This document shows, piece by piece, positions 6,307 to 34,786 of a stretch of 64,000 bases of DNA. A model generated the notes under the pieces. That model was not told the DNA's origin, searched no databases, and saw nothing but the letters and a program-made list of their open reading frames with translations. Each line of letters starts with the position of its first letter. Position 1 is the first letter of the stretch. The position numbers and the translations under genes were made by a program. Source of the DNA: Alphaproteobacteria bacterium (GTDB lineage: Bacteria; Pseudomonadota; Alphaproteobacteria; UBA7985); assembly GCA_965228345.1 (NCBI GenBank), contig CBDDHH010000003.1, forward strand, positions 181,806 to 245,805, read 5' to 3'.

Positions 6307-6310
6307 AGGG

Positions 6311-7333
6311 TTAGACTACCGCCTCTTTCGGCCTTGTCCAGGGCGAAGACACAGCCAGGGTCGGCGAGTCCAGATCGGTGTCCGTCGGTTCAAGAAGTGC
6401 CATGAACCCCCTGGGTGCCGCCGCGGCCGCCGCCAGCCCTTGGCCTGGGTCGGGTCGATTGATATGAGGCGCCGACCGGGTGGAGGGGCGCGGCTGCATG
6501 GCGGCAAAGTCAAAGAGGTCCTGATCGGCCAGATGACTGGGGAAAAGGTGGCTTAGGGCCTTAAAGATGGCTTGCCGACGCCCGGGATAGGTCCTCTCAA
6601 ACTCACTTAGCAGCGTCTTGAAGGCCTGGCGCTGCAAATTGGGTTGCGTCCCGCACAAGTTGCACGGGATGATGGGATAAGCCATGGCGCGGGCAAAGCG
6701 CCCTATGTCGGCTTCCGCGCATGCATAAAGCGGCCGGATCAAGGTGTGCTGGCCCGACAAGGCCGCGAGCTTGGGCGGCATGGCCTTGAGCCGCGCGCCA
6801 AAAAACATATTGAGCAGCAGGGTCTCGATCACATCGTCGCGATGATGACCCAAAGCAATTTTGGTTGCGCCAATTTCGGCGGCCTTGGTATAAATGATAC
6901 CCCGGCGCAGGCGTGAACACAAGGCGCAGGTCGTTTTGCCCGGGGCGGTTTTGGCCTTCACTATGGCGTAAGTGTCCTCACGGTGGCAAAGGTGCGCCAC
7001 CCCAACCTCGGCAAAGTAGGCAGGCAGGGTTTCTTGGGGAAATCCCGGTTGGGCTTGGTCGAGGTTGAAGGCCGTTATGCGAAAATCAAAGGGCTTGCGC
7101 CGTGCTAGGTCCTGCAATATCGTCAGCAAGGTATAGGAATCTTTGCCGCCTGAGCAGCAGATCATGATATGGTCGCCAGGGTCGAGCATGGAAAATTGGT
7201 GCATCGTCGCCTCAACCTGCCGGGTCATGCGACGGCGCAACCGCTCAAACTCCCCTGACTTGCGCGCGCGCGCGTAGGGATCAGGAGGTGTCGGGGCGTC
7301 GCGAGTGGACTCGAGCAGCATCGGCGTGGGCAT
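6311..7333 (-). CDS. ttcA: tRNA 2-thiocytidine biosynthesis protein TtcA (PP-loop ATPase)
   Basis: PP-loop motif CCSGGKDS and Cys pairs (CALC, CNLCG) in the 384-aa ORF 6311..7465. I place the start at the internal ATG 7333 (MPTPMLLEST...), because the upstream 44 codons run into the repeat element. The stop is 4 nt before the Calx-beta ATG. Confidence 0.85.
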   Translation of the reverse strand: MPTPMLLESTRDAPTPPDPYARARKSGEFERLRRRMTRQVEATMHQFSMLDPGDHIMICCSGGKDSYTLLTILQDLARRKPFDFRITAFNLDQAQPGFPQETLPAYFAEVGVAHLCHREDTYAIVKAKTAPGKTTCALCSRLRRGIIYTKAAEIGATKIALGHHRDDVIETLLLNMFFGARLKAMPPKLAALSGQHTLIRPLYACAEADIGRFARAMAYPIIPCNLCGTQPNLQRQAFKTLLSEFERTYPGRRQAIFKALSHLFPSHLADQDLFDFAAMQPRPSTRSAPHINRPDPGQGLAAAAAAPRGFMALLEPTDTDLDSPTLAVSSPWTRPKEAVV

Positions 7334-7467
7334 GGGAAAGCTTAGGCACAAGAATTCGTAAAAATCACGCCCCAGGCCGAAAAAAATCTCTCTTGTGGCA
7401 GCTGGGTCCGTGTCCACAGCACGGGTTTCGATTTTGGACCCTGGCCCTGTAGTATCTGCGGTCATAA

Positions 7468-12517: not shown

Positions 12518-12542
12518 GGGCTGAACGAGGGCAGGCAGAGCC

Positions 12543-12824
12543 ATGGCAACAAAGAACACGGTCGCGCCTGCGGTCAAGACGGGCGACATCATCCAATACA
12601 ACGGCGACAATGTCACGAACATCACCGAGGACAACAGCCTTGTTTATCCGATTTATTTTTCTGTGAGTGCCGGGCCTGCCCCGACGCCAACCGAGGAAGA
12701 GCCCGAGGTGGCAGAGCCTGGCGATGAGGACTCAGACCTGCCCGCCTATCTGCAAGCGACCCTAGAGATCACGGAAACCGCCGAGATCACTGAAATCACC
12801 GAAGTCGAAGAAATCCAAGTTTAG
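12543..12824 (+). CDS. Hypothetical acidic phage protein with EIT(E) micro-repeats
   Basis: 93-aa ORF, co-oriented with its neighbours. C-terminus ATLEITETAEITEITEVEEIQV. Confidence 0.4.
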   Translation: MATKNTVAPAVKTGDIIQYNGDNVTNITEDNSLVYPIYFSVSAGPAPTPTEEEPEVAEPGDEDSDLPAYLQATLEITETAEITEITEVEEIQV

Positions 12825-12839
12825 AAAAGAGGAGAAGTC

Positions 12840-13817
12840 ATGGCCTTTACATCGCGCAAGACGCAAATCGAAGAAGCAATCATTCAGGTCAACGCGCAAA
12901 TGACCGCGATCACGGGCGCGACAAGCGGGCCGCTATCGAGCGACCAAGCCGCCGCCTACGAGCGCCTCAGGGTGACGCATAGCCACTATATCGACCTTCA
13001 CGTCACCGAGGAAGAAAAAGAGGCCGCTGCCGCCGCACAAGCCGCCTATGATGCCATCGATTCAACTGCGGTCTGGACTAAGACTTATGGCGCGGTCGTG
13101 GGTGTCTTTTCAGCCTATCACGGCTATTCAGGTACGGGCGCAACGTCGCAAGTTGGCACCAACCAAAGCGAACAGGCCAGCCACCGCTTTCTAACCATGG
13201 CGGCTTGTGGTGAGGCGTGGGCCGATGAGGATTTATCGTCCAAGCTCAACTTCCAATACACGCAAATGGAAACCAATTGGTTCACGGTGGATCGGCCCTT
13301 CTGGTATTTGGGCGAAGGCTACAACGAGGACGACCAAAGCAGCAGCACCTACACCTATCCGCGCCGCCCGCACTCGTTCGTGCCGCTACGCAATTCGACC
13401 GATGCCGATATTGTGCTAAACGTGGTTTATGAGGCCAGCAGCTATTCCAGCAATTATTCGAATATGGGGTTCAATACGTGGACGCCCGACCTTACGAACA
13501 CCGAATTAGCGACCCATAGCGGCGATGTGGCGGTGACGTTTCAGAACGTCTTTCAATACTCCAGCAACACAGCCCGTCGCGCCTCAAATCAGAATATCAC
13601 CATCCCTGCGGGCAAGTCGATCATCCTGCATTACTGGTCATCTGGCAAGTATCATGCGGATGTGACCAATCACTACACCATGAACTACGTCCACGGGCTC
13701 GACATATCGGCGATTGAGACCATCGATGGGCTTGAGTGCGACAAGCAGATCATGACCAACTTCGGCAAGAATTACAAAAAGGTGGGCAGTTTGTTCCTGC
13801 CCGAGCCTACTGAATAA
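12840..13817 (+). CDS. Hypothetical protein; helical N-terminus and a Ser/Tyr/Asn/Thr-rich C-terminal domain
   Basis: 325-aa ORF with GAGGAG 6 nt upstream of the ATG. Its composition clearly differs from the neighbouring phage ORFs. Confidence 0.5.
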   Translation: MAFTSRKTQIEEAIIQVNAQMTAITGATSGPLSSDQAAAYERLRVTHSHYIDLHVTEEEKEAAAAAQAAYDAIDSTAVWTKTYGAVVGVFSAYHGYSGTGATSQVGTNQSEQASHRFLTMAACGEAWADEDLSSKLNFQYTQMETNWFTVDRPFWYLGEGYNEDDQSSSTYTYPRRPHSFVPLRNSTDADIVLNVVYEASSYSSNYSNMGFNTWTPDLTNTELATHSGDVAVTFQNVFQYSSNTARRASNQNITIPAGKSIILHYWSSGKYHADVTNHYTMNYVHGLDISAIETIDGLECDKQIMTNFGKNYKKVGSLFLPEPTE

Positions 13818-13828
13818 GGAGCCTCCCC

Positions 13829-14083
13829 ATGAGTGACAAAAAAGCAACAGTGCCGACGCGGTGGATTGAGTTTGACGCGCAAGGCAACCAGGCGGGCGTC
13901 GGGATTGATCGCGTTCCTGGGACTTATGAGGCCCCTGCGGGCTATGACCCTGCTGCGGACTTTGCGCGGCTGGTTGACGGCAAGGTGGTCCTGGAGCCGA
14001 ATTGGACGGCGGAGCAGTACGAGGCGCACGAAGAAACCAAGCGCCTAGAGCGGATTGCCAAAGCGGCCAAAGAGGCCGCCTAA
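13829..14083 (+). CDS. Hypothetical phage protein
   Basis: 84-aa ORF with GGAG upstream, in the co-oriented block. Confidence 0.4.
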   Translation: MSDKKATVPTRWIEFDAQGNQAGVGIDRVPGTYEAPAGYDPAADFARLVDGKVVLEPNWTAEQYEAHEETKRLERIAKAAKEAA

Positions 14084-14091
14084 GCTAGGCC

Positions 14092-14631
14092 ATGGCGACT
14101 TATGACGTCACCCTGACGCTGGACAAGTCCGAGATCGGCAAGACGGTCACGGCCCAGCTCTTGCTTGCCGACGCTGACGAAGCGGCGATTGAGGTGACGG
14201 GCTTCACGGCTATGTCGGCGGCGGGGCGCTATGGGGCCAACCTGCCCAGCGACCTAGCGGCGGGCGAGTACCAGATACTTTACTACGCCGACGACGTGTT
14301 CAGGGTTGATGACACCTTGACCTGGGACGGGTCTGCTATCGTTGAAGGCGGCGGCGAGCCCGTCACTCTGGCCGATGCGTCGGTCGATGCGATTGTCGAG
14401 GCCGTTGAGCGCGATGAAGGGCTTGTGAAGGGGTTGGATGCCAAGGTTGAGGCCTTGCCCGACGCTGACGCCACCGCTGAGGCTGTTTGGACCAAAGAGA
14501 CGCGCACCGTTACGGGCACCCAAGACGACGCGGCTTTGCCCGCCAATGTCAAGTATATCAATGACATAGGCGTCGGTGGGTCGGGCGTTGAGGGCGATAC
14601 TTGGGGGCCGGCGCCTAGCGAAAGCGCTTAA
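14092..14631 (+). CDS. Hypothetical phage structural protein
   Basis: 179-aa ORF, tightly packed. No family recognised. Confidence 0.45.
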   Translation: MATYDVTLTLDKSEIGKTVTAQLLLADADEAAIEVTGFTAMSAAGRYGANLPSDLAAGEYQILYYADDVFRVDDTLTWDGSAIVEGGGEPVTLADASVDAIVEAVERDEGLVKGLDAKVEALPDADATAEAVWTKETRTVTGTQDDAALPANVKYINDIGVGGSGVEGDTWGPAPSESA

Positions 14632-14634
14632 GCC

Positions 14635-15141
14635 GTGACGGCGGTTGTTGACGCCTTCGGCGGGGCCTTTGGCGCGGCTTTTGGGCCTGCCTTTGGCTGG
14701 TCGATCGACGAGCCCGAGACCGCCACCAAGCCGACCCATAGCGGGCGCGTTTGGGTTGGTGGGCAGTGGGAGGACGAGGACGATGACCCGCTGGCCACCA
14801 TCGAGGATGCGCTCGACTATCTGAACCGCAAGCCCAAGCTGACCAAGGCGGCGCGGGCCAAGATCAAGGCCAAGATCGAAGCGGCGCGCAAGGTGGCGGA
14901 GAAAGCCGCCGCCGAACAAGCGGCCCAGCAAGCGCGCATGACGGCGCAGGCGGCCCGTGAGAGTGCCGCAAGCGCCTTGCTGCGGGATCTGCCGCCTTTG
15001 CCCGATTTGGACGCGCAGCGGGTGAGTTTGGTGCGCTTGCGGGCTTGGTTTGTCGAGTTACGGGCGCGGATCAGCGCTTTTGAAGATCACAAGCGCGCCG
15101 AGGACGAGGCTGCCATATTTTTGCTGCTGATGGATGACTAG
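14635..15141 (+). CDS. Hypothetical phage protein
   Basis: 168-aa ORF with a GTG start, 3 nt after the preceding stop. Confidence 0.4.
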   Translation: MTAVVDAFGGAFGAAFGPAFGWSIDEPETATKPTHSGRVWVGGQWEDEDDDPLATIEDALDYLNRKPKLTKAARAKIKAKIEAARKVAEKAAAEQAAQQARMTAQAARESAASALLRDLPPLPDLDAQRVSLVRLRAWFVELRARISAFEDHKRAEDEAAIFLLLMDD

Positions 15142-15370
15142 ACTTAGCCAAGGGGAGGCGCTGGCCCTCCTGCACAATACCACGCTCATGGCGCTCCTGG
15201 ACCAGATGGAGGCCGATGCGCTGAACCTGGCCGTGAACGCCAGTGCCGATGAAGATTCCCGCCGTTTGGTCGCCTGCACGCGCGCCAAGGCGTTTCGAGA
15301 TTTGAGACGGAAGTTGACGACCCTTTCCGAGGGCAAGACCAATCCCGCCTCAGATACGCGCGACGGATAG
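15134..15370 (+). CDS. Hypothetical phage protein
   Basis: 78-aa ORF overlapping the previous ORF by 8 nt. Confidence 0.4.
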   Translation: MTRLSQGEALALLHNTTLMALLDQMEADALNLAVNASADEDSRRLVACTRAKAFRDLRRKLTTLSEGKTNPASDTRDG

Positions 15371-15408
15371 CCGTCCCGCGTTACCAACCTTTCACAAAGG
15401 ATTGAGAC

Positions 15409-16335
15409 ATGACCCTAGACCCTGAAACGGGCGAGGCTATGGACGATCAAGACTTAGGTCTTGAGGACTTTGCAGACTTGCCCGACGAAGCGGACACGCC
15501 CGACGAAGAGCAACCCGAAGAGGACGAAGGCGCCGATTTGGCGGCGGATCAAGACGATCAGCCAGAGGCCGATGAAGACGACCCCGACGCGGACTTGAGC
15601 GAAGGCGACAAGGTGCTGGTCACTTTGAGCGACGGCGATCAAGTCAAGCTGGAAGAACTGAAGGCAGGCTATTTCCGTCAAAAGGACTATACGCACAAAA
15701 CTGAGGAACTGGCGCGCGAGCGCGAGCAGATCGGTGAGATCCGCAAGGCTTACGACCAGCAGACTCAAGCCCTCCAAGCCGCGCAAAATGGACTTGCGCA
15801 CTATATGCAGGGGCTTGTTCCTCCCGAACCCGATCTATCCCTGGCCCAGACCAACCCTGGGCAGTACCAATACCAGCAAGCCATGCGTCAACAGGCCATG
15901 GTCGAGTTGCAACGGGTACTCCAAGCCAGTCAACAGACGCAGGCGCAAGCCACGCAGGCCGACGCGGCCGAGCTGGCCCGCTACAAGTCCGACGAGGAAG
16001 CACGGCTGATCCAAGCCATGCCAAGCCTCAAGGACCCTGGGCGGCGCAGCAAATTCCACGCGGATGTGCGGCAAGCGGCCTTGGACTTTGGCTTTAGCGA
16101 GGCAGAGATCGACACGACCCTTGACCACCGCATCCTGCGGCTGGTGCATTTTGCCCGCCACGGCAAGCAAGCCTTGGACAACCGATCCAGGGCCGCGCGT
16201 CGTGCTGGCGAGAAGCCAAGCAAGGGCAAGCGGGCACCCGGGACGGCAGCAGCCCCCCAGGCGCGCAGCAAGGCCATGGAGCGCCTCACTAAATCTGGCG
16301 ACATTGAGGACGCGGTTGCCGCGATGCTCAACTAG
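15409..16335 (+). CDS. Putative scaffolding protein
   Basis: 308 aa, immediately upstream of the capsid gene. Extremely acidic N-terminus (D/E/P-rich), Q/A-rich helical middle, basic C-terminus. Confidence 0.5.
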   Translation: MTLDPETGEAMDDQDLGLEDFADLPDEADTPDEEQPEEDEGADLAADQDDQPEADEDDPDADLSEGDKVLVTLSDGDQVKLEELKAGYFRQKDYTHKTEELAREREQIGEIRKAYDQQTQALQAAQNGLAHYMQGLVPPEPDLSLAQTNPGQYQYQQAMRQQAMVELQRVLQASQQTQAQATQADAAELARYKSDEEARLIQAMPSLKDPGRRSKFHADVRQAALDFGFSEAEIDTTLDHRILRLVHFARHGKQALDNRSRAARRAGEKPSKGKRAPGTAAAPQARSKAMERLTKSGDIEDAVAAMLN

Positions 16336-16364
16336 CCACTCTCTAACCTCGAAAGGGTAAAACT

Positions 16365-17354
16365 ATGGCTGTTTCAACAGGAGCCTTTAAGACCGGTTCA
16401 GCGAAAGTGAACCGCGAAGAACTCGCCAACGTCGTCGATGCCGTCCAACGGTCGGACACGCCGATCTATTCCATGATCGCCAATTCCACGGCCAAGTCGG
16501 TCTTTCCTGAATGGCCTGTGCGGGACTTCGATGCCCCCGCGCAGAACATCCAGTCAGAAGGGCGCGACTATGCCTTTGAGTCGGACAATCCGTCAAAGCG
16601 CATGGGCAACCATACGCAGATCTTCGCCAAGAACGGCAAGTTCACCAACACCCAAGAAACGGTCGATAATGCCGCCAAGTCCGAACAGATGGCGCGCGAC
16701 AAGATCGAAAAGGGTTTGGCCTTGCGCACCGATGTGGAATTTTCCATCGTCACGAACAACGCCTCCCTCGGCGGCGATGATCGTGTGTCGGGGTCTCTAT
16801 CGACCTGGGCCGAGACCAACGTCTCACGCGGGGCAGGCGGGGCCAATGGTGGCTACAGCGAGACCACCAAGGTCACGACCGCGCCGACCGACGGAACGCA
16901 GCGGGCCTTGAGCAAGGACCTGATCGACGATCTGCTGCAAGCGGGCTATTCGTCGGGCGCCAAGCTGACGCATATGTTCTTTAGCCCCTACGGCAAGCGG
17001 GTCTTTGCCAGCCTGATGGAAGACCCTGGCGTTGCGCAGTTCCGCTACGCGGCCAAGGGCGGCAAGAATACCATCGTTGCCACGGCAGAGATTTACCTCG
17101 GCCCCCTCGGGCAAGTCACGGTGCATCCCAACCACGTCATGGGCGCCAGCGCCACGCAAGCGCGCAACGCCTTTGTGCTGGATACCAAGCGGGTCAAGTG
17201 GAAGTGGCTGCGCGCCATCTACGAGGACAAGGACCTGGCCAAGACGGGGGACTATCGGCAGTTCGTCCTGCAAGGCGAAGGCTGCCTGTGCGTTGAGAAC
17301 GAAAAGGCGGTCGGGGTGATCGCGGATATCTATGGGCTGACGGCGACGACCTAA
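16365..17354 (+). CDS. Major capsid protein (HK97-fold, SU10/DUF5309-like by recollection)
   Basis: 329 aa, follows the scaffold gene, and is followed by a strong terminator. The family call rests on recalled sequence character only. Confidence 0.65.
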   Translation: MAVSTGAFKTGSAKVNREELANVVDAVQRSDTPIYSMIANSTAKSVFPEWPVRDFDAPAQNIQSEGRDYAFESDNPSKRMGNHTQIFAKNGKFTNTQETVDNAAKSEQMARDKIEKGLALRTDVEFSIVTNNASLGGDDRVSGSLSTWAETNVSRGAGGANGGYSETTKVTTAPTDGTQRALSKDLIDDLLQAGYSSGAKLTHMFFSPYGKRVFASLMEDPGVAQFRYAAKGGKNTIVATAEIYLGPLGQVTVHPNHVMGASATQARNAFVLDTKRVKWKWLRAIYEDKDLAKTGDYRQFVLQGEGCLCVENEKAVGVIADIYGLTATT

Positions 17355-17373
17355 GAGGCTGACCAACTGGGAA

Positions 17374-17397
17374 GGGGGCTTAGCGGCCCCCTTTTTT
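17374..17397 (+). terminator. Rho-independent terminator after the capsid gene
   Basis: GGGGGC-ttagcg-GCCCCC followed by TTTTTT. Confidence 0.8.
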
Positions 17398-17495
17398 GTA
17401 ACATTTGCACTTGGGGCTTGAAATATGAGGGTCGTATCCTTAGTGAAAGAGGTCCGTGAGGGGTTTGGACTTTCTTTGAGTTGAGGTGATGACGG

Positions 17496-18050
17496 GTGTT
17501 TGACTTAGCCAAGGCTGCCCACATGGTCGCGTTTTTTGCGCTCAAAGCGGGTCGAAATATCAACCTTATGAAGGTCGTCAAACTGGTTTACCTTGCAGAT
17601 CGGGAAAGCGTGAAGCGGATTGGTGCGCCCCTCTTACACGACGCGCGAGTCTCCATGCCGCACGGACCTGTTAACAGTGGCGTTTTGGACGCCGTGAATG
17701 GCGCCTATGACGATCCAAGATGGCGATCAGTGCTAAGGGATCGAGCCCATCATTACATTGGTGTTCAGCCAGGCATCCGCGAAGATGATCTTGATGAGCT
17801 GTCCGACTACGATGTTGAGGTCATGGAGGCGGTTTGGCAAGAGTTTGGCGCTATGGATCAGTGGGAGCTTAGCGATTGGACCCATAACAGCAACAACGTT
17901 CCTGAATGGACGAGCCCAGGTGGGGGCGCGCAACCCATCCCAATGCAGAAATTTTTTGAAGGCGTTGGCTGTGAGGACCCAGAAGGAGCGTCCGCGACTT
18001 ATCTTGCTTCCGAGGCTTATCTTAAGTTTATTCACCCGACCCACGTGTGA
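17496..18050 (+). CDS. Panacea-domain (DUF4065, SocA/GepA-like) antitoxin PanA
   Basis: The N-terminus VFDLAKAAHMVAFFALKAGRNINLMKVVKLVYLADRES...MPHGPV matches the DUF4065 pattern (x-hKLqKLlYhad...., GPV). GTG start with GAGGTG upstream. 4-nt GTGA overlap with the next ORF. Confidence 0.75.
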   Translation: MFDLAKAAHMVAFFALKAGRNINLMKVVKLVYLADRESVKRIGAPLLHDARVSMPHGPVNSGVLDAVNGAYDDPRWRSVLRDRAHHYIGVQPGIREDDLDELSDYDVEVMEAVWQEFGAMDQWELSDWTHNSNNVPEWTSPGGGAQPIPMQKFFEGVGCEDPEGASATYLASEAYLKFIHPTHV

Positions 18051-18436
18051 TCCAACCCAAACAGGTTTACTACCTGGAGACGCTGCTTTCAGGTCGCCCA
18101 GGTCATACGCGCTCGCACTATACCGTGGTTGTTTTTGTTGAGGATGATCGCGCGCTTCTTGTTCCCATATGTAGCAAGCGGCCTCATGCCTACGACCCCA
18201 CGGTGGAGCTAGGCCCAAACGAATACCCACGGCTCCGCCATGCGTCGTTTGTCGAGTATAGCAAGGCCGACTTTATAAGCTTAGGGCATTTGTCGGAACA
18301 AATTGCAGCAGGCCTCGCGCGGCCTTGCGAAACCTTAAATGCGCAAGTGTTCTTGCGGATCAAGAACGGGCTTCTAAACTCGACCTACACGAAGAGAAAA
18401 ATCAAAAATTGGGTCAAGGGTCGCGCGGCCGAATAG
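18047..18436 (+). CDS. Candidate toxin partner of PanA (unknown family; weak MazF/PemK-like N-terminal pattern)
   Basis: 129-aa ORF translationally coupled to PanA (GTGA). QVYYLE...GHTRSHYTVVVFVEDDRALLVPICSK resembles the beta-barrel core and the vPxTS motif of PemK-like toxins, but the match is not secure. Followed by a terminator. Confidence 0.5.
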   Translation: MIQPKQVYYLETLLSGRPGHTRSHYTVVVFVEDDRALLVPICSKRPHAYDPTVELGPNEYPRLRHASFVEYSKADFISLGHLSEQIAAGLARPCETLNAQVFLRIKNGLLNSTYTKRKIKNWVKGRAAE

Positions 18437-18500
18437 GGCCAGGCTTGGCCGTCGCGCGAACTTTCGAATTCTATCCGCTGACAAGCTAGACCGAAACTTG

Positions 18501-18522
18501 AGGGGCCAATGGCCCCTTTTTT
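18501..18522 (+). terminator. Rho-independent terminator after the PanA/partner pair
   Basis: AGGGGCC-aat-GGCCCCT followed by TTTTT. Confidence 0.75.
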
Positions 18523-18546
18523 ATTGCTGAGTCTTGGGGGGGTGGG

Positions 18547-19647
18547 ATGTTGAAAATTGACTCGCCCATGCTGGCGAATCCCCATACGCCGCTTGACGTG
18601 GTTGATTTCGTTGAGCCGAAGCACTCAAAGGCCCGTGTTCGCCTTGCTGGCGACGTTCTCAAGCAAGCTCATGACCAAGTCAGCGACGAGTTGACCGACG
18701 CTTTCTCTGTCGCCTATGCCTGGCGTGACGCTCATGCCCTGCCTATGTCCGCCATGTTGAGCGAGTTGCGGGGCCTTGTTCGTCGTGGCGGTGGCGTAGG
18801 CTATTGCGCGGCACGACTTAAGCGCATGGCGTCGATACGGCCCAAGCTGGCGCGGTTCAAATTGCGGCTGGCAGACATGCAAGACTTGGCAGGCGCGCGG
18901 GCAATCTTGCCCTCGATCAGCGATGTCGAGCGCGTTTCTGCGCTGCTGGAAAGTGCGCGGTTTGGTCCGTCAAAGCCCGCAGTTGACTATATGGCGGCCC
19001 CAAAAGCGGACGGCTATAGGAGCGTCCACCGCGTCTTGAAGATGGAGGGCCACGGAGAGCGAGCGCCTTGGGGCGGCATGAAGGTGGAGGTGCAGGTAAG
19101 GACGCGGCTGCAACACGCATGGGCGACGGCGGTTGAAGCGCACGACATGATGAGCGGCGAGACCAGCCTGAAGGGCGGCCAAGGCGACGATAGTTGGCGG
19201 CGGTTTTTTGCACTTATGTCGGGCGAGATTGCCGAAGTTGAAAGCGCACCGCTTCCCGCCAGTGTGCCGGAAAACAGATCGGAGCGCCGAGAGGAATTGG
19301 CGCACCTGAACCGCGAGATTGACGCCCTTAGGGTGCTAGAAAGTTACCGCCTAGCGGCGGATGCGGCGGACGCGCGCCCTGATGCTCGCTATTTCTTGCT
19401 GATGCTGGACACGCGCCGAAAGACTGTCAAAATAAGATCCTTCTACGGCATCCTGGACGGCGGCGACGCATACAACCAAAGAGAGGCGAGCGCGACTAGC
19501 ACGGTATTGGTTGAATCGGGCGACGCGAAGAACCTAGCGGCGGCCTATCCAAACTACTTTTTAGACATTCGTGCTTTTGTTGGTCAGGTTCGCGTCTCGC
19601 TGGGCGGCCATGACTTGTCCTGGCTTAGTGAATACGGGCGCTGTTAG
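18547..19647 (+). CDS. RelA/SpoT-domain nucleotide pyrophosphokinase (small alarmone synthetase / toxSAS-like) with a ~160-aa C-terminal extension
   Basis: All synthetase motifs are present: RLKRMASIRPK (RxKxxxSxxxK), DLAGARAI (DxxGxR), DGYRSVH, and VEVQVRTRLQHAWATAVEAHD (ExQxRTxxQHxWA). These span aa 90-200, which is nt 18814-19146. Confidence 0.8.
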   Translation: MLKIDSPMLANPHTPLDVVDFVEPKHSKARVRLAGDVLKQAHDQVSDELTDAFSVAYAWRDAHALPMSAMLSELRGLVRRGGGVGYCAARLKRMASIRPKLARFKLRLADMQDLAGARAILPSISDVERVSALLESARFGPSKPAVDYMAAPKADGYRSVHRVLKMEGHGERAPWGGMKVEVQVRTRLQHAWATAVEAHDMMSGETSLKGGQGDDSWRRFFALMSGEIAEVESAPLPASVPENRSERREELAHLNREIDALRVLESYRLAADAADARPDARYFLLMLDTRRKTVKIRSFYGILDGGDAYNQREASATSTVLVESGDAKNLAAAYPNYFLDIRAFVGQVRVSLGGHDLSWLSEYGRC

Positions 19648-19664
19648 GCATCGCCGTGTTTTTT

Positions 19665-19700
19665 GGCCCGTAACTTTTCGGAAACAGGCCCGTAACTTTT
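19665..19700 (+). promoter_or_regulatory. Two direct copies of GGCCCGTAACTTTT with a 22-bp period, upstream of the resumed phage genes
   Basis: Copies at 19665-19678 and 19687-19700, about 35 nt upstream of ATG 19734 (RBS GAAAGGAA). Confidence 0.3.
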
Positions 19701-19733
19701 TTGATTTCCCCAAAAAAAACGAAAGGAATCCCC

Positions 19734-20024
19734 ATGACAAAGGATGAACTAGAAGCTCTGGGCCGTGAGCATGGCTTGGAATTGGACAAGCGCAAGTCGG
19801 TTGCCAAGTTGCGCGAGGAGTTGGCTGCGGCGGGCGTTGAGGTGCCTGCGGAGGCGGCTGAGGCCGCTGAGCCTGGTGCGGCTGAACCTGGCGTTGATGT
19901 TGAGATTTTGCGCGACGTTTGGGACGCAGGCGGGGTTCGGCAGCGGCGGGGGTCGGTGGTGGCGGTTTCTACCGATACGGCCCTTGAGTGGCTCGAAAAG
20001 GGCCTGGCTAAGCGCGCCGCATGA
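19734..20024 (+). CDS. Hypothetical phage protein (helix-extended-helix, Rho-N/SAP-like N-terminus)
   Basis: MTKDELEALGREHGLELDKRKSVAKLREELAAAG. The start is taken at the internal ATG with an RBS; the ORF is open from 19701. Confidence 0.5.
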   Translation: MTKDELEALGREHGLELDKRKSVAKLREELAAAGVEVPAEAAEAAEPGAAEPGVDVEILRDVWDAGGVRQRRGSVVAVSTDTALEWLEKGLAKRAA

Positions 20025-20362
20025 TTGGGCAACGCGACAGCGCGGGCTGGCAGTGTGTGGGCTTTAACCCGCAAAGCCAAGTGTCCACCTGGATCAAGCC
20101 CGATGGCGACGAGGATATGTTGATCGAAGAACGTCAAGAGATTGGCGCCATCCTCGATCACAACACCGCTGCCCGCAATGTGGCTGAGGCGGGCTGGAAA
20201 GGCGACGGGCTGCACCGCGTTGCCGCCATTCCCATGGCCATGGCCCATGAGCGGGATAGCTTTCTACACGGGGCCTTGCAGGCCCAGGACGCCAAGGCCC
20301 TTGCGGGCGTGTTGAACGATAGCGACTTTGCCAAGCTGCGCACCAAGGAAGGCGCCATCTAG
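20021..20362 (+). CDS. Hypothetical phage protein
   Basis: 113-aa ORF with a 4-nt overlap on the upstream ORF. Confidence 0.45.
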   Translation: MIGQRDSAGWQCVGFNPQSQVSTWIKPDGDEDMLIEERQEIGAILDHNTAARNVAEAGWKGDGLHRVAAIPMAMAHERDSFLHGALQAQDAKALAGVLNDSDFAKLRTKEGAI

Positions 20363-20934
20363 TGATCCAGGACTATGCGGCCCTAATCGCCGAGGTGACG
20401 CTTCGGTCGGGCGTTTCGGATGTTGCGACCCGCGCGGGCCTGTATGTTGGCATGGCCGAGAACGCCCTTTCTAAGCGGCTGCGCGTTGGCGACATGGAGA
20501 CCGAAGCGACCTTGACCACCGACGAGGACGGGCGCGCGGACTTGCCGGCGGACTTTTTAGAAGTGCGGTCGCTACGCACGGCGGACCAGGCTTTGCCGCA
20601 ACGGACCTTGCGAGCCGTTCAGGACGGGGCGGTCTGTGGCTATGCGCTGACGGGCAAGGCTTTGGTGACGAACGAGAAGGAAACGGACCTTGAATTGGTC
20701 TATTACGCCGCTTTGCCTGGCCTAGAAGCGCATGACACCAACTGGCTGCTGGAGCAGGATCCTGAGGTCTATTTGAGCGCGGTGCTGTTTCAGGTCTTTA
20801 TCGCCAATTCCAACCTTGAGGGCGCGCAGGCGGTGACGGGGCTGTTGACGGGGCAGATCGAGGCGCTGAACCGCGACGACTATCGCAAGCGCCATGCAGG
20901 GGCGCGGGTGAATGTGGCGGGGCTTACGCCATGA
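20362..20934 (+). CDS. Phage virion protein (head-tail adaptor or tail-tubular-like, unassigned)
   Basis: 190 aa, overlapping its neighbours. Shares the ..DLP.DF..... pattern with the next ORF, suggesting the two are paralogues. Confidence 0.45.
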   Translation: MIQDYAALIAEVTLRSGVSDVATRAGLYVGMAENALSKRLRVGDMETEATLTTDEDGRADLPADFLEVRSLRTADQALPQRTLRAVQDGAVCGYALTGKALVTNEKETDLELVYYAALPGLEAHDTNWLLEQDPEVYLSAVLFQVFIANSNLEGAQAVTGLLTGQIEALNRDDYRKRHAGARVNVAGLTP

Positions 20935-21533
20935 GTGCTGAGGATGTTTTGAGTCATGTCTTGCTGGCCGTTGGGCTGGATCGGCCTGGGGCGCAGTTGA
21001 CGGCGGGGGACTTTGAGATTGACCAGATCAAAGCCTTTATGAACGAAGCGGGAACGGACATCGCGCGGCGGGCGCAGTGGTCGGGCTTGTTTAAGACGCA
21101 CACCATCGAAGGCGAAGTGTCGGCGGTGGATTTGCCCGAGGATTTTTATCAGATGGCGCAGAATGGGGCGGTGCGGCTGAATAAGGAGGGGTTTTACCCT
21201 GTTTTGCCCGTGCTGGTACCTGAGCAGTGGGCTTTCTTGTCGGCGCGGCCTTCGGCGCAAGCGCACTATCACCTTTCGCAAGGGCAGCTGTTGTTTTCGC
21301 CTGCGCTCGATGAAGATGGGGCGGTCATGGTGTACCTGTCGAGCTGGTGGGTCGAGGGCAAGGGGGCGATTAGCCAGAATAGCGACGAGATCCTGATCCC
21401 CGAACGCCTGGTCGAAAAGGGCACGGTTTGGCGGTGGAAGCGGCAAAAGGGCATGACCTACGATGATTTGCTCGCCGAATTTGAAGCCGACCTTGAGGCC
21501 GAACTGAACGCGGATCGAGGCGCGAGTGCTTAG
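20931..21533 (+). CDS. Phage virion protein (possible paralogue of the preceding ORF)
   Basis: 200 aa with an ATGA overlap. VDLPEDFYQMAQNGAVRL compares with ADLPADFLEVRSLR in the previous ORF. Confidence 0.45.
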   Translation: MSAEDVLSHVLLAVGLDRPGAQLTAGDFEIDQIKAFMNEAGTDIARRAQWSGLFKTHTIEGEVSAVDLPEDFYQMAQNGAVRLNKEGFYPVLPVLVPEQWAFLSARPSAQAHYHLSQGQLLFSPALDEDGAVMVYLSSWWVEGKGAISQNSDEILIPERLVEKGTVWRWKRQKGMTYDDLLAEFEADLEAELNADRGASA

Positions 21534-23169
21534 GATTGCGCCATCGCGGGCGCGGCCCAGCAATCGCACCCCGACAGAATCCGACAAGACCCCCGCCGCC
21601 AAGGCCAAGTCCTACGGCGCTCCAACCGCTGGACTTGTGACCAATCTCCCCCTGGCGGCGGGGATGCCCGCCTCGGCCATTGAGCTTGATAACTTCTGGC
21701 CGACCAGCACGGGCCTTGAGCCGCGCGGGGGCAGCGCCTTGGTCGCCACCATCGAGGGGCCGGTCGAAACGCTGTTCCAGTATCAGGCGGGTGCGCTTGA
21801 GGTGTTCTTTGCCGCCGATGCGGGCAACATCTATGCCTTTGACGGCGACACCTCGGGCGGGGCGGAGTTGTCGCCGGTGGTGACGGGGCAGACCTCGGGC
21901 GATTACTGCGATTTGCATATTCAGAACCAGGGCGGCTCGTTCTTATGCCTTGTGAATGGCGCGGACCCCATGCAGCTTTACGACGGGGCCAGTTGGCAGC
22001 AGGTGACCGATAGTAGCAGCCCCCATGCCATTACGGGCGTTGATACGTCCACCTTGTCCTACACTTGGGCCTATCGCAATCGGCAGTTCTTCATCCAATC
22101 GGGGACCATGAACGCCTGGTATTTGGGCGTGAACTCGGTTTCGGGCATTGCCACGATCTTACCCCTTGCGGGCGTGTTCAACCGTGGCGGGTCGCTGCTG
22201 TTTGGGGCGACCTGGTCCTCCGACAGTGGGGCGGGCATGGACGACCGTTGCGTTTTTGCAACAGATCAGGGCGAGTTTGCCGTTTATGAGGGCGACCCCT
22301 CGGACCTCAGCACCTGGTCTTTGACGGGGGTCTATACGATCGGCAAGCCGCTGGGCAAGCGGGCGCATATGACTGTCGGCGGTGACTTGATCGTTGCGAC
22401 GCACGATGGTCTGATCCCCATATCGGCGGCGACGAGTAAGGACCCCTCGCAACTGACTTTGAGTGCGCTCAGCATCAAGATCGAAGGGAACTGGCGCAAC
22501 GCGGCCCTTGGGACCTATGGCGGCAAGACTTGGGCGCTGGCCAAGTGGTCGGCCAAGAACATGGCGCTTGTTCTGCCGCCGATCGATGGCGACGTCTATT
22601 GCTGGGCCGTGAACCTGACCACGGGGGCCTGGACCAAGTTTTCAGGCTGGGCGGCGGCGACCGTGGCCGTGCTGGGCGACGGGCTTTACTACGGCGGCAG
22701 CGACGGCGCCTTGGTCGCGTGTGACGTTGGCGGCAGCGATCAGGGCAGCCCCTTTGAGTGCCGGGCTTGCTTCGCCTTTGACCATTTGGAGGCCCCTGGG
22801 GCGCTGAAAGTCGCGCACCTGATCCGCTCTAAATGGCGGCGCGGCCATACCTTTGCCAGCAAGCACAGCATCGCGAGCGACTATCGGCCCAATTTCCCGA
22901 CTTTGCCCGCCGCGGCCATCCCCGAGCCGACGACGGCGAGCGACTGGGATGAGGCGATTTGGGATGAAGCCTATTGGAACGATGATCGCGGCGGCTTTTG
23001 GAGCGCCTCGGGGGACTGGGATATAGCGGAAAAGTGGGAAAGCATTTCGGGCCACGGCGAAGTCTTGGCCCCGCAAGTGCAAGTCATCTCAGCGCAGGAT
23101 GTGAAGCTTGCTTGTGAGCTCATCTCCCTCGATCTGACCTACACGGTTGGGGCCGTGCCCCATGGCTAG
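21526..23169 (+). CDS. Large phage tail or nozzle-type structural protein (unassigned)
   Basis: 547 aa with a GTG start overlapping the upstream stop. Gly/Trp/Ser-rich, beta-type sequence. Confidence 0.5.
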   Translation: MLRIAPSRARPSNRTPTESDKTPAAKAKSYGAPTAGLVTNLPLAAGMPASAIELDNFWPTSTGLEPRGGSALVATIEGPVETLFQYQAGALEVFFAADAGNIYAFDGDTSGGAELSPVVTGQTSGDYCDLHIQNQGGSFLCLVNGADPMQLYDGASWQQVTDSSSPHAITGVDTSTLSYTWAYRNRQFFIQSGTMNAWYLGVNSVSGIATILPLAGVFNRGGSLLFGATWSSDSGAGMDDRCVFATDQGEFAVYEGDPSDLSTWSLTGVYTIGKPLGKRAHMTVGGDLIVATHDGLIPISAATSKDPSQLTLSALSIKIEGNWRNAALGTYGGKTWALAKWSAKNMALVLPPIDGDVYCWAVNLTTGAWTKFSGWAAATVAVLGDGLYYGGSDGALVACDVGGSDQGSPFECRACFAFDHLEAPGALKVAHLIRSKWRRGHTFASKHSIASDYRPNFPTLPAAAIPEPTTASDWDEAIWDEAYWNDDRGGFWSASGDWDIAEKWESISGHGEVLAPQVQVISAQDVKLACELISLDLTYTVGAVPHG

Positions 23170-23629
23170 GGTTGCGCCCGTCATGGACCAGGCGCCCACG
23201 GTCAAGCGCTTTGTCGAGCGGGGCCTTTGGGGCGGGGCGCGGCAGTTTGACGACTCTTATGCGGCGATTGGCTTTGCGGATGCGACGCGGGGCCTGATCG
23301 CGGGCTTCATTTATACGGACTGGCAGCCAGAGGCAGGGACGGTCGAACTATCGGCCTATGCGACCTATCGCGATTGGATGTCGCGGAAGGCCTTGGGGAT
23401 CTTGCTCTACGACTATCCCTTTGGGTCGCTTGGCTGTCGGCTGGTGGTGGCGCGGCACAGTGAGCGCAACGCGCCCGTGCGGCGCATATGGCGAGCCTTG
23501 GGGGCGCAGGAGACGCTGATCCCCGAGCTATGGGCCCCAGGCGAAGCAACGGCCATTGCGGTGCTGAAAACCGCCGACTTTGCGGGGACTAAATTCATGA
23601 AAGGACACAGCAAGCATGGGAAAAAGTAA
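23147..23629 (+). CDS. Hypothetical protein, weakly GNAT-acetyltransferase-like
   Basis: 160 aa. The ...RLVVARHSERNAPVRRIWRALGAQETLIPELW pattern resembles the GNAT C-terminal region. Low certainty. Confidence 0.35.
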   Translation: MGPCPMARVAPVMDQAPTVKRFVERGLWGGARQFDDSYAAIGFADATRGLIAGFIYTDWQPEAGTVELSAYATYRDWMSRKALGILLYDYPFGSLGCRLVVARHSERNAPVRRIWRALGAQETLIPELWAPGEATAIAVLKTADFAGTKFMKGHSKHGKK

Positions 23630-24617
23630 GCCTAAGGCCCCAAAGGCCCCCGACCCAATCCAAACGGCAGGGGCGCAGACGACGCAGAACATCGAGACGG
23701 CCAAAGCCCAGCAGATGATGAACAACATGAACCAGGTTAACCCCTACGGCAGCCTGACCTATAGCCAAACGGGGACGCAGACCGTGAAGGGCCCCGACGG
23801 GACGGTTCATGAGATCCCGACCTATACGGCGGAGCAGACTTTGAGCCCCGAGATGCAGGCCCTGTTTGACAAGAATGTCGCCTTGCAAGGGGGCATGGCG
23901 GACTTTGCGGGCCAGCATCTGGCCGATATGCAGGGCAGCGACATTTACGCCCAGGACTATTCGGCAGATCGGCAACGGGTCGAGGATGCGCTTATGGAGC
24001 GCATGAACCCAGGGCTTGATCGGCGGCGCGAAAACCTGGAATCACGCCTTGCCAGCCAAGGGATCCAGATCAGGTCGCAAGCCTATAACCAGGCCATGGA
24101 CGACCTGAACCGCGGCGAGAACGATGCCCGCCTTGGGGCGATTGCGAACGCCGGCCAAGAGCAAAGCCGCATGACGCGCGATGCCATGGCTAAACGCGGG
24201 CAGCAATTCAACGAGATGCAAGCCTTGAGCGGCGGGGCCCAGGTAAACCAGCCAAGCTATCAAATGGCCGCGCCCGCGCAGATCGCGAACACGGACGTGG
24301 CGGGGCTGACTATGAACGCGCATAACCAAAACATGAACGTCTATAACCAGCAGATGGCGCAGCAGAACCAGCTTATGGGCGGGCTGTTTGGCTTGGGCGC
24401 GGCGGGCATCGGCCTCATGTCGGATCGGCGCGTCAAGGAAGATATAAAGCAGGTCGGCAAGACCAACGACGGGCAGAACATCTATTCCTTCCGATACAAG
24501 GGCGGCGGCCCGATTCAGATGGGCCTCATGGCGCAGGAAGTTGAGAAGAAGAAACCCAAAGCGGTCGGGGAGGTCGGCGGCCTCAAGTTTGTCGATTATG
24601 GGGAGGCCTTGGCATGA
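23616..24617 (+). CDS. Tail fibre/spike-type protein with a C-terminal intramolecular chaperone (peptidase S74) domain
   Basis: C-terminus SDRRVKEDIKQVGKTNDGQNIYSFRYKGGGPIQMGLMAQEVEKKKPKAV..VDY is the S74 autoproteolytic chaperone signature. The N-terminal part is Q/N/M-rich. Confidence 0.7.
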   Translation: MGKSKPKAPKAPDPIQTAGAQTTQNIETAKAQQMMNNMNQVNPYGSLTYSQTGTQTVKGPDGTVHEIPTYTAEQTLSPEMQALFDKNVALQGGMADFAGQHLADMQGSDIYAQDYSADRQRVEDALMERMNPGLDRRRENLESRLASQGIQIRSQAYNQAMDDLNRGENDARLGAIANAGQEQSRMTRDAMAKRGQQFNEMQALSGGAQVNQPSYQMAAPAQIANTDVAGLTMNAHNQNMNVYNQQMAQQNQLMGGLFGLGAAGIGLMSDRRVKEDIKQVGKTNDGQNIYSFRYKGGGPIQMGLMAQEVEKKKPKAVGEVGGLKFVDYGEALA

Positions 24618-25030
24618 TGGGCACAAAATCCTTTGGCGGCGGCCAAGGCGGGGGCTACATCTTCGGCGGCAACACGGGCAAGTCTTACGAGGACGTGCAG
24701 CGGATGCGCCAACAGGCCAGCCAGATTTCACCGCTTCAAAACGGAATGCCGCGCAACGTCGGCGAAGGCATCGCCAGCATCGGGCAAGCACTGATGGTGC
24801 GCCACCTTGAGGGCAAGGCCAAGAAAGCCGAAGAAGCAGGGCGAAAGGAAGCTACAAACGCATTTCAGCACATCCTATCGCAGCCGAGGGGGCAATGGGA
24901 CATGGCCCAAGTCGGGGCCTTGTCCGACAACGGCTATTTGAGCGACGCGCAGCGCGGGGCCATGGCGACGTTGTTTCAGCAGGACCTGGAGCGGCGGCTT
25001 GGGGCTTATATCAGCGGCGATTTAAAATGA
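24614..25030 (+). CDS. Hypothetical phage protein; the last 7 codons and the stop are supplied by repeat copy R2
   Basis: 138 aa with an ATGA overlap. The C-terminal YISGDLK* is encoded by the A-type hairpin module (TATATCAGCGGCGATTTAAAATGA...). Confidence 0.4.
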   Translation: MMGTKSFGGGQGGGYIFGGNTGKSYEDVQRMRQQASQISPLQNGMPRNVGEGIASIGQALMVRHLEGKAKKAEEAGRKEATNAFQHILSQPRGQWDMAQVGALSDNGYLSDAQRGAMATLFQQDLERRLGAYISGDLK

Positions 25031-25348
25031 CTCTTTTATTCGCTGGTATAAGGGCCGCGACTGCGGCCCCCGTAGCGGGCTCCAAGCCCGAAGGGCGCAG
25101 GGAACGCCCGCGCCAAAAACACTTGGGCTCCAAGCCCGAAGGGCGCAGGGAACGCCCGCGCCAAAAACAAGCGGCCCCGAGAATAGCTAAGAAAGCGCCT
25201 CGGAGTATAAGCGAAGGCCCCGTCGCGCGGTCGGGCTGAGCGAGCGGTGCAAGCGAGGTGAGACCGCATCAAACAGCCGAAACGCGAAGCGTTTCTGCCG
25301 TGAGACAAAACTCTGCTGAAAATGTCAATTCTTAGCGGAGTTGGTATA
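25007..25348 (-). repeat. Mosaic intergenic repeat, copy R2 (long form, reverse) with an internal 48-bp tandem duplication
   Basis: Its reverse complement aligns module by module with R1, R7 and R11. GGGCTCCAAGCCCGAAGGGCGCAGGGAACGCCCGCGCCAAAAACA occurs twice, at 25077 and 25125. Confidence 0.9.
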
Positions 25349-27336: not shown

Positions 27337-27524
27337 TATGCCAGTTCACCTTAAAACAGACTCTTTATGAACTGGTATAGGGCCGCGACTGCGGCCCCCG
27401 CAGCGGCCCCGAGAACAGCTAAGAAAGCGCCTCGGGGTATAAGCGAAGGGGAGGCGAAACGCGCCGCGTTTCTGCCGTGAGACAAAACTCCGCTAAAAAT
27501 GTCAATTTTTAGCGGAGTTGGTAT
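27337..27524 (-). repeat. Mosaic intergenic repeat, copy R3 (short form, reverse)
   Basis: Contains the T-type hairpin, GGGCCGCGACTGCGGCCC, CCCCGAG...CTCGGGG, GAAACGCgccGCGTTTC, CTGCCGTGAGAC and the CTCCGCTAAAAA-TGTCAA-TTTTTAGCGGAG hairpin. It lacks two modules found in the long form. Confidence 0.9.
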
Positions 27525-33387: not shown

Positions 33388-33408
33388 TTTTTGTAAGAAA
33401 GGCAAAGA

Positions 33409-34101: not shown

Positions 34102-34104
34102 GCC

Positions 34105-34503: not shown

Positions 34504-34504
34504 T

Positions 34505-34560
34505 CAACCACGAAGCGGCCCACCGAAAGCCATTCAGCCCGATTCAATACAAATGTGAAT
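34505..34560 (-). repeat. G-element copy G2 (second half only, reverse), directly 5' of the gtrA-like gene
   Basis: The reverse complement TATTGAATCGGGCTGAATGGCTTTCGGTGGGCCGC aligns with G1 TATTCAAGACAAAGGCGAATGGCTTAAGGTGCGACGGGCAC. Confidence 0.5.
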
Positions 34561-34562
34561 TG

Positions 34563-34758: not shown

Positions 34759-34786
34759 ATCGGGAGGGTTGCGCCATCGACTGGCC

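Follow-up and report, generated by a model that had tools for sequence, protein, structure and literature searches.

A fused toxSAS that senses a phage capsid protein has been described in Salmonella phage SJ46, and structures of this protein, CapRel(SJ46), are available (PDB 7ZTB; 9ERV with Bas11 Gp54). CapRel(Ebc) of Enterobacter chengduensis is 70% identical to the SJ46 protein and senses T7 Gp0.4 together with FtsZ; its C-terminal domain sets the specificity and the triggers are not necessarily capsid proteins (PMC13423816). Toxin and antitoxin can also be encoded by two genes, as in the unfused actinobacterial CapRel/ATcapRel systems and in Phrann, whose prophage-encoded superinfection defence gp29/gp30 (PhRel/ATphRel) combines a related toxSAS toxin with a separate antitoxin gene, whose product is a homolog of CapRel's C-terminal domain (PMC9712102). 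In Vibrio harveyi, the type II PanAT system PanA:CapRel has a Panacea gene near a synthetase of the CapRel subfamily, and PanA experimentally neutralises this toxSAS (PMC8832971). Panacea genes are also found as neighbours in the CapRel/PhRel tree (PMC9712102), and in a 10 x 10 matrix PanAs neutralised their cognate toxins only (PMC8832971). The housekeeping small alarmone synthetases (SAS) RelQ and RelP (PDB 5DEC, 6EWZ), which have the synthetase fold in common with these proteins, belong to a class of about 200-230 aa with a conserved chromosomal context; they lack a C-terminal sensor/antitoxin domain and are not carried on mobile elements.

The window, which is the whole stretch of 64,000 nucleotides analysed here, contains a single-gene defence candidate at 18547..19647 (366 aa, ATG start); this gene with its domains and motifs, the PanA module, the hairpin and the cargo slot described below are on the + strand. 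It quite probably encodes a fused CapRel-type toxin-antitoxin that combines anti-phage sensor and effector in one protein. Where exactly the gene starts is uncertain, as conservation begins at about aa 19 and the pLDDT is below 50 for residues 1-11. The toxSYNTH (RelA/SpoT synthetase) region, assigned from PF04607 and from residue alignment to SJ46, spans aa ~19-203 (18601..19155). Here, Pfam RelA_SpoT (PF04607) matched aa 90-199 with an E-value of 2.6e-17 (63.6 bits, cut-off 27), and the scan of the 366-aa protein returned no second domain. Thus, the protein is without an HD hydrolase domain, in agreement with the first-pass annotation, which had also described the catalytic motifs as intact. 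The alignment bears this out: R90, R93, D113, R118, G156, Y157, H161, E181, Q183 and R185, all catalytic or substrate residues, are invariant in 119 homologs, and the intact ORF retains all 19 invariant family positions together with the YXXY motif described below. The ATP-coordinating residues R90 (18814-18816) and R118 (18898-18900) align to R79 and R116 of SJ46, the G-loop tyrosine Y157 (19015-19017) aligns to Y155 and A88 to A77, and the catalytic EVQVRTxLQH block occupies aa 181-190 within the toxSYNTH region. In a Foldseek search with the AF2 model, the fold of the N-terminal half resembled RelQ/RelP (TM ~0.65-0.75 over ~195 columns) as well as the N-domain of CapRel. A Cys-rich motif is missing, as the same annotation had stated, because C87 and C366 are the only cysteines, leaving none between aa 88 and 365; the pseudo-zinc-finger of CapRel shows just this lack.

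The remaining ~160 aa had been regarded as similar to nothing known, which turned out to be wrong: CapRel(SJ46) has a homologous region, its antitoxin/sensor domain. The PADLOC profile PDC-S33 matched aa 22-350 of the window protein (E 2.9e-91, 304.5 bits). A literature search for 'PDC-S33' gave no match, but CapRel(SJ46) scanned against PADLOC hits the same profile (E 7e-87, 290.1 bits), which identifies it as a CapRel model. Both proteins also share PHROG 4773, with E-values of 2e-64 for the window protein, which it covers over the full length, and 1.3e-144 for CapRel(SJ46). BLASTP of one protein against the other aligned aa 22-344 at 28% identity (E 2e-28), the identity being no higher than 27-28%. 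Since CapRel(Ebc) is 70% identical to the SJ46 protein, its distance from the window protein should be similar. In a sequence search of the PDB, the two CapRel(SJ46) entries 7ZTB and 9ERV were the best matches (E 1e-22), followed by RelQ/RelP at 1e-7, 15 orders of magnitude weaker and restricted to the synthetase half. Strong matches in the PDB and the phage databases were confined to CapRel(SJ46) and one close relative, which is indirect evidence for a place in the CapRel subfamily of the RSH classification (Jimmy et al. 2020). A search of phage records at E <= 1e-5 matched four records, and Phrann was not among them. The family as a whole is present in at least 582 species genomes.

The C-terminal region starts with a helical anchor and linker (aa 204-281, 19156..19389) between synthetase and sensor domain, with AF2 helices at 215-231, 244-258 and 260-266 that were aligned with the SJ46 helices by phmmer and BLASTP. 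It is followed by a cysteine-free pseudo-zinc-finger sensor/antitoxin domain (pseudo-ZFD, aa 282-323, 19390..19515), for which AF2 predicts strands at 282-288 and 293-299, a helix at 302-313 and a further strand at 318-323 (pLDDT >90). Behind it are predicted helices at 327-333, 342-351 and 358-365 and a putative autoinhibitory YXXY motif, Y334-P-N-Y337 (19546..19557), which lies inside a conserved AYPNYFLD stretch, is modelled as a short helical turn (helix 335-338) and aligns to A351-Y352-P-N-Y355 of SJ46. This topology of beta-beta-alpha-beta, then helices and the YPNY turn, agrees with the published description of CapRel (PMC9712102). Using the functional residues as defined for SJ46 in the same study (PMC9712102), V338, L339, A351, Y352 and Y355 correspond to V320, L321, A333, Y334 and Y337, the first two being located in the pseudo-ZFD. 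Six of the seven residues of the YXXY motif and its scaffold match, the sole mismatch being A341, one of six interface positions tested in SJ46, which is a glutamate (E323) in the window protein. Among the 119 homologs, 94 have AYPNYF and 15 have AFPNYF (together 109). In the homologs, the catalytic core and the YXXY helices are kept, whereas the linker and the pseudo-ZFD vary, as reported for CapRel, with linker residues 267-281 forming the most variable stretch of the conservation profile.

The AF2 model of the entire protein (pLDDT 92.2, pTM 0.89) matched chain 7ztb_B with an E-value of 1.4e-20 over ~351 columns, including the pseudo-ZFD region. Alignments of this length were obtained for CapRel entries only (TM 0.65-0.70), in contrast to the ~195 columns of ordinary SAS. 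The rmsd of the model to the open CapRel crystal form was 10 A, which is only consistent with a domain arrangement unlike that form. At the level of sequence, motifs and predicted fold, the window protein is a divergent, complete member of the CapRel family, and the earlier suggestion of a fused infection-sensing toxin-antitoxin is well supported by profile, residue motifs and predicted fold. It resembles CapRel(SJ46) in length (366 versus 373 aa), two-domain organisation, ATP-site arginines, G-loop tyrosine and pseudo-ZFD topology, and in being phage-borne and encoded by a single gene. In contrast, the sequences of pseudo-ZFD and linker are unrelated in detail, and the host element is an alphaproteobacterial SU10-like prophage instead of an enterobacterial P1-like phage.

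Based on CapRel(SJ46) and CapRel(Ebc), we infer autoinhibition, activation by a phage protein, tRNA as the target and abortive infection for the window CapRel. In this model, the N-terminal RelA/SpoT-type synthetase would be the toxin, and the pseudo-zinc-finger, which has no cysteines, would serve together with the anchor helices on its flanks as both antitoxin and sensor. In an uninfected cell, the C-terminal domain would fold back and insert the YPNY turn (Y334/Y337) between R90 and R118, thereby blocking the ATP site; CapRel(Ebc) belongs to the same family and would share this mode of autoinhibition with the window protein. Once a phage infects, one of its proteins would bind to the variable surface formed by pseudo-ZFD and anchor and keep the enzyme open, which could then pyrophosphorylate tRNA 3' ends, halt translation and abort the infection. 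The trigger is probably unlike that of SJ46, because the pseudo-ZFD and linker differ so strongly in sequence.

The gene had been assigned to a phage element, and phage structural genes indeed surround it, but the element is only a truncated SU10-like prophage segment (8303 to ~25030). A tail gene is shortened to 138 aa compared with 437 aa in the related phage contig L002, the segment showed no genes for integrase, replication or lysis, and no tRNA genes that could serve as integration sites were found in the window. The SU10-like phage persists in this uncultured alphaproteobacterium as a truncated prophage. Two inverted repeats of ~250 nt (7517-7756 and 25058-25306) were considered as att sites or transposon ends and rejected, because at least ten partial copies of this repeat element occur in intergenic regions of the window and in a relative's genome; the phage contigs have no copy of it.

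Within the segment, a variable cargo slot (17355..19700) extends from the SU10-type major capsid gene (16365..17354), 1.2 kb upstream of the CapRel gene, to the backbone gene p107 (19701..20024). Three copies of the phage carry PanA together with the synthetase, namely those in the window, in L002 (a 41.5-kb contig, apparently of a fuller phage) and in L003, which have 0 nt differences over 1286-1379 nt and different flanks. In sister phages, the slot carries PanA, ORF129 and SoFic in place of the synthetase (L084) or a ClpP-like SDH protease (L086), or is empty (L087 and L088). The cargo types seen are accordingly fused CapRel, SoFic, the ClpP-like SDH protease and a PanA:MazF-fold pair, and the CapRel gene is a self-contained, swappable cassette that an SU10-like temperate phage carries in the gap where its capsid gene is followed by those for head completion. 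Tentatively, and with the odds rather against it, this gap in SU10-like temperate Alphaproteobacteria phages might be an undescribed recombining hot-spot for single-gene defence cargo, whose CapRel, with a pseudo-ZFD that differs in detail from those of SJ46 and Ebc, may sense a new class of trigger and tolerate the SU10-type capsid protein of its own phage.

The single-gene architecture of the window CapRel was also examined with regard to its neighbours. The comparison with Phrann gp29 made in the first-pass annotation stands as far as the related subfamily is concerned, and fails for the gene organisation: PhRel has its antitoxin on a separate gene (PMC9712102), whereas here both parts are fused in one 366-aa ORF with no antitoxin-like ORF after it. 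As that annotation had noted, there is no separate antitoxin ORF downstream; 19701..20024 is phage backbone and is kept in sister phages without the synthetase, and is therefore no antitoxin. Upstream, the annotated PanA antitoxin (17496..18050, Pfam SocA_Panacea E 3.2e-19) was confirmed, as was the terminator between both genes. PanA overlaps by 4 nt with ORF129 (18047..18436, 129 aa), which that annotation had not mentioned, and both form a separate module (17496..18436) on the same cargo island. Behind ORF129, a strong terminator-like hairpin of 8 base pairs (18500-18518), 6 being G-C, is followed by a T-run. This element (18500..18526), which L002 and L003 have conserved, parts the operon from the CapRel gene, whose ATG follows after only ~20 nt. 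By sequence, neither Pfam nor a 50-sequence profile searched against PDB sequences gave any match for ORF129. Its AF2 model (pLDDT 95.8), however, found MazF/Kid proteins in all 50 of the top 50 Foldseek matches, and ORF129 is predicted to be the MazF-fold partner of PanA, an assignment made from the modelled structure.

Neutralisation of the synthetase in trans by PanA had been suggested as well; the locus would then be a three-gene, PanA-controlled toxSAS, whether or not the C-terminal domain contributes. There is precedent for it in V. harveyi and in the Panacea neighbours of the CapRel/PhRel tree, and all three phage copies carry both genes. Nevertheless, we regard it as highly improbable. 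Unlike in V. harveyi, PanA is translationally coupled to ORF129, which together with the terminator intervenes between PanA and the synthetase, and ORF129 offers a toxin fold of its own, if the MazF prediction is right. Seven distinct ORF129-family members (32-100% identical) follow a Panacea gene where no synthetase is present, the pair is retained next to SoFic in L084, and both PanA and ORF129 are absent from all 80 genomic loci of synthetase homologs. The reported cognate specificity of PanAs points in the same direction, as does the apparently complete autoinhibitory module in the synthetase sequence itself. PanA is therefore unlikely to be the antitoxin of the window CapRel. It is unlikely, too, that we are dealing with a nucleotide pyrophosphokinase of the alarmone type, which would produce (p)ppGpp or toxic (pp)pApp instead of modifying tRNA, possibly under C-terminal control. 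The catalytic fold in common with RelQ/RelP, weak NCBIfam matches to GTP diphosphokinases and the synthesis of (pp)pApp by some toxSAS, among them FaRel and Tas1 (PMC9712102), would fit this activity. But the NCBIfam scores are far below the cut-offs (34.5 versus 320 bits for YjbM), the E-values against solved structures favour CapRel over SAS (1e-22 versus 1e-7), and translation is what CapRel(SJ46) and V. harveyi CapRel, as the nearest relatives with a known function, inhibit; SJ46 pyrophosphorylates tRNA (PMC9712102, PMC8832971).

Because the prophage is truncated, the CapRel gene could be a non-functional relic that is stranded, unexpressed or inactive, in a decaying fragment. The shortened tail gene and the phage genes not seen in the segment speak for this, and a sigma-70 scan, which used an E. 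coli-type consensus only, detected no promoter upstream of the gene. However, the ORF is intact with all invariant positions and YXXY in place, and every nucleotide is identical to the copies on apparently fuller phage contigs, so that we consider a relic very unlikely. The chance that we are dealing with a small alarmone synthetase for housekeeping in the host is close to nil; this reading, for which the RelA_SpoT domain is the sole point in favour, is already effectively refuted by context. The gene lies inside phage structural genes, encodes an additional 160-aa CapRel-type C-terminal domain and reaches about a tenth of the cut-off with the NCBIfam SAS equivalogs. Its homologs are located in unrelated neighbourhoods: among 148 neighbouring genes at ~75 loci, no Pfam family occurred more than three times. 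The first-pass annotation had named a conserved housekeeping SAS at this position in phage-free relatives as evidence against a defence role; in the nearest relative genome (OZ245893.1), the equivalent site beside TtcA (84% identical) is without the synthetase.

CapRel is already characterised, with crystal structures and known triggers, and the fused CapRel-type gene of the window is in this respect a routine new example without a new mechanism. It adds a divergent, prophage-borne alphaproteobacterial case to a family whose mechanism was solved in enterobacteria. The sister phages form a compact, comparable set showing the exchange of cassettes at one slot of a structural module. A CapRel with such a different sensor domain provides material for studying how trigger specificity evolves, and its position close to the capsid gene of its own phage for studying by what means a prophage keeps from setting off a capsid-type sensor of its own. 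If the hot-spot, the new trigger and the tolerance of the own capsid were true, the locus would be a natural test case for the discrimination of self and non-self by a capsid-sensing immune protein.

The gene at 18547..19647 (+ strand, ATG start) encodes a 366-aa protein in which RelA_SpoT is the sole Pfam domain (aa 90-199, E 2.6e-17; score 63.6 bits, cut-off 27). The Pfam scan found no HD hydrolase domain, and the protein contains two cysteines only, C87 and C366. The first-pass annotation had described this synthetase ORF accurately, and the PanA gene and terminator that it reported upstream are both present: a Panacea-domain gene (17496..18050, + strand, Pfam) and a terminator-like hairpin with a T-run (18500-18518; 8 pairs, 6 G-C). 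Absent from that description was a 129-aa ORF (ORF129, 18047..18436, + strand), which overlaps PanA by 4 nt and lies between it and the terminator.

The C-terminal region had been called uncharacterised, but it is not an orphan, as the whole protein matches known profiles and structures. The PADLOC model PDC-S33 covers the synthetase end to end (aa 22-350, E 2.9e-91, 304.5 bits) and PHROG 4773 matches it with an E-value of 2e-64. We scanned CapRel of Salmonella phage SJ46 (L001:2971-4092), a characterised fused toxin-antitoxin, against the same libraries. Both models are those of the fused CapRel family, because CapRel SJ46 matches PDC-S33 (E 7e-87, 290 bits) as well as PHROG 4773 (E 1.3e-144). 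Among all PDB sequences, the top matches were 7ZTB and 9ERV (E 1e-22), which are CapRel SJ46 alone and in complex with Bas11 Gp54; ordinary small alarmone synthetases came next (E 1e-7). Direct comparison with CapRel SJ46 by BLASTP gave 28% identity across aa 22-344 (E 2e-28).

In CapRel SJ46, the toxSYNTH domain, one of four family-defining features, contains the ATP-coordinating residues R79 and R116 and the G-loop residue Y155 (PMC9712102). The other three are a pseudo-ZFD, whose cysteine-free sheet has three strands and a helix inserted between the second and third of them, anchor helices, and the YXXY motif (Y352, Y355), which is scaffolded by A77, V338, L339, A341 and A351 and autoinhibits the enzyme by inserting between the two arginines (PMC9712102). 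In an alignment of the synthetase with SJ46 and 18 homologs, the three toxSYNTH residues correspond to R90, R118 and Y157, the motif tyrosines to Y334 and Y337, and the scaffold to A88, V320, L321, E323 and A333. The sole mismatch among the mapped residues is thus E323 in place of A341. The catalytic residues do not vary among 119 homologs, and the YXXY region reads AYPNYF in 94 and AFPNYF in 15.

The AlphaFold2 model of the synthetase, built from the 119-sequence alignment, is of high confidence (pLDDT 92.2, pTM 0.89) and predicts a C-terminal part of two strands (282-288, 293-299), a helix (302-313), a third strand (318-323) and subsequent helices; a short helical turn (335-338) coincides exactly with YPNY. 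In a Foldseek search of the PDB, CapRel entries were the only full-length matches (~351 columns, E 1.4e-20, TM 0.65-0.70), and RelQ/RelP aligned across ~195 columns only. The rmsd of 10 Å between model and CapRel crystal would be expected from comparing a closed model with an open crystal form. Taken together, the profile families common to CapRel SJ46 and the residue-level and fold-level tests bear out the CapRel-like option among the roles initially proposed.

The protein database contains over 1000 relatives that are similar in length (closest: 46% identical), and at least 582 of the species-representative genomes scanned, from many phyla, carry one. Among the homologs, the catalytic core and YXXY helices are the most conserved parts and the linker and pseudo-ZFD the least, as has been reported for CapRel sensor domains. 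No Pfam family was seen more than three times among 148 genes flanking ~75 homologs, indicating that the gene is a self-contained, mobile, single-gene unit. Recurrent flanking families are transposases and restriction-modification parts.

On one side of the synthetase gene is an SU10-type major capsid gene (16365..17354, Pfam E 5.8e-64); on the other are SU10 adaptor genes. The surrounding phage segment (8303-25030) starts at the small terminase (8303) and stops in a shortened tail gene (24614..25030; 138 aa vs 437 aa in the metagenomic phage contig L002), and 8631-25004 is collinear with L002 at 97.5% identity. Its content is limited to terminase, portal, scaffold, capsid and adaptor genes and a partial tail module; integrase, replication and lysis genes or a tRNA were not seen in it. 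With cellular genes on both sides, namely a TtcA-like PP-loop ATPase (6311..7465) and, from 27.6 kb, UbiA, FAD oxidoreductases and a lipid A acyltransferase, the segment is a truncated prophage. The closest genome, the uncultured alphaproteobacterial MAG OZ245893.1, has the left flank in common (TtcA 84% identical), and phage, synthetase and PanA genes are absent from the 10 kb beside its TtcA.

A dispersed, modular, REP/MITE-like intergenic repeat of up to ~290 nt occurs at 7517-7785, 25031-25320, 27359-27497, 34609-34757, 35516-35681, 39649-39822, 45859-46047, 52229-52357, 55283-55473, 56837-56959 and 61133-61369; a stretch of 45 nt is duplicated in tandem at 25077-25169. The prophage fragment is bracketed by two inverted copies, and the repeat may have mediated its truncation; copies are also found in a related MAG (L095) and none in the phage contigs. 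Positions 16-7414 are syntenic with this MAG (region 80% identical). Within 1-5900, + strand ORFs have no Pfam hits and an odd composition, one possibility being a large minus-strand gene running past the window start. Among host-side genes, G+C is 0.46-0.52 at 33000-35000 vs ~0.60 elsewhere.

The region between the capsid gene and the backbone gene p107/p113 (17355-19700) is a variable cargo slot. In sister phages it is empty in L087 (3711-3948; capsid 68% identical), where backbone genes follow almost directly after the capsid gene, and in L088 (8993-9305; 55%), holds a 307-aa ClpP-like SDH protease in L086 (8990-10300; 97%) and contains PanA, ORF129 and SoFic in L084 (395-2960; 95%, partial). 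PanA, ORF129 and CapRel occupy it in the window, L002 and a further phage copy, L003 (capsid 100%). The synthetase with its immediate flanks (18372-19750) shows 0 differences in 1286-1379 nt between these three, whereas neighbouring genes differ by ~0.5-3% (capsid at 17-21 of 990 nt, PanA at 17 of 555 nt), which suggests recent recombinational spread of the CapRel cassette. A second variable slot lies between two SU10 adaptor genes (L003:7694-8920, L084:4330-5517); in sister phages it is occupied by a ~400-aa AAA_16/ATPase_2 gene without a significant PADLOC match, L084 has two further small ORFs, and the window has no insert at the equivalent point near 20934.

ORF129 belongs to an unannotated family of ~125-135 aa proteins (155 clusters at 50% identity) and matched neither Pfam nor PDB sequences. 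Its AlphaFold2 model (pLDDT 95.8) has a MazF/Kid fold, with the top 50 Foldseek matches all MazF-family (TM 0.55-0.70). Wherever the upstream gene is visible among the loci counted (window, L002, L003, L084, L085, L089, L091/L092, L093, L094), a Panacea gene directly precedes the ORF129-type gene, in seven distinct members that are 32-100% identical (window 17496-18436, + strand; L084:544-1484; L085:1-872; L089:802-1723; L091:131-1110; L093:2432-3408; L094:217-1182). From its predicted fold, the family appears to be a class of PanT toxins that can be recognised by fold alone. L002 lacks 39 nt spanning the 3' end of ORF129 and the beginning of the intergenic region (window 18426-18464; L002:9920-9935), which alters the C-terminus of the ORF (131 aa vs 129 aa) without affecting the terminator.

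The synthetase is a CapRel family member in sequence and architecture, and by analogy with the SJ46 and Enterobacter chengduensis proteins it is quite probably a fused toxin-antitoxin (PMC9712102, PMC11578894, PMC13423816). Its own YPNY turn would autoinhibit the enzyme until a protein of an invading phage binds the variable pseudo-ZFD and anchor surface; the opened synthetase would then pyrophosphorylate tRNA and abort the infection. As a capsid protein, the small protein Gp54, and Gp0.4 together with FtsZ are all among the known triggers of CapRel proteins (PMC9712102, PMC11578894, PMC13423816), one should not presume that the synthetase responds to a capsid protein.

That the enzyme makes nucleotide alarmones instead of modifying tRNA appears improbable, and an inactive relic somewhat more so. 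Neutralisation in trans by PanA, proposed in the first-pass annotation, has a precedent in Vibrio harveyi, where PanA neutralises a CapRel-subfamily toxSAS; PanAs are also cognate-specific (PMC8832971). Here PanA has its own overlapping partner in ORF129, and 0 of 80 genomic loci carrying a synthetase homolog contain a PanA or ORF129 relative. Moreover, L084 retains both genes with a Fic protein (PADLOC SoFic, E 1.9e-43) instead of the synthetase, so that this control is very unlikely. A housekeeping SAS can practically be dismissed, since the corresponding NCBIfam models score far under their cut-offs (e.g. YjbM, 34.5 bits vs 320) and none is found in the 10 kb beside TtcA in OZ245893.1; the conserved housekeeping SAS at this position that the first-pass annotation had named as a refutation is thus not seen there.

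The CapRel-type synthetase is therefore a divergent addition, in a typical context, to a family that is already known and whose structure has been characterised. Of the side results, the hot-spot for cargo in SU10-like prophages and the pairing of PanA with a MazF-fold protein are the most useful.
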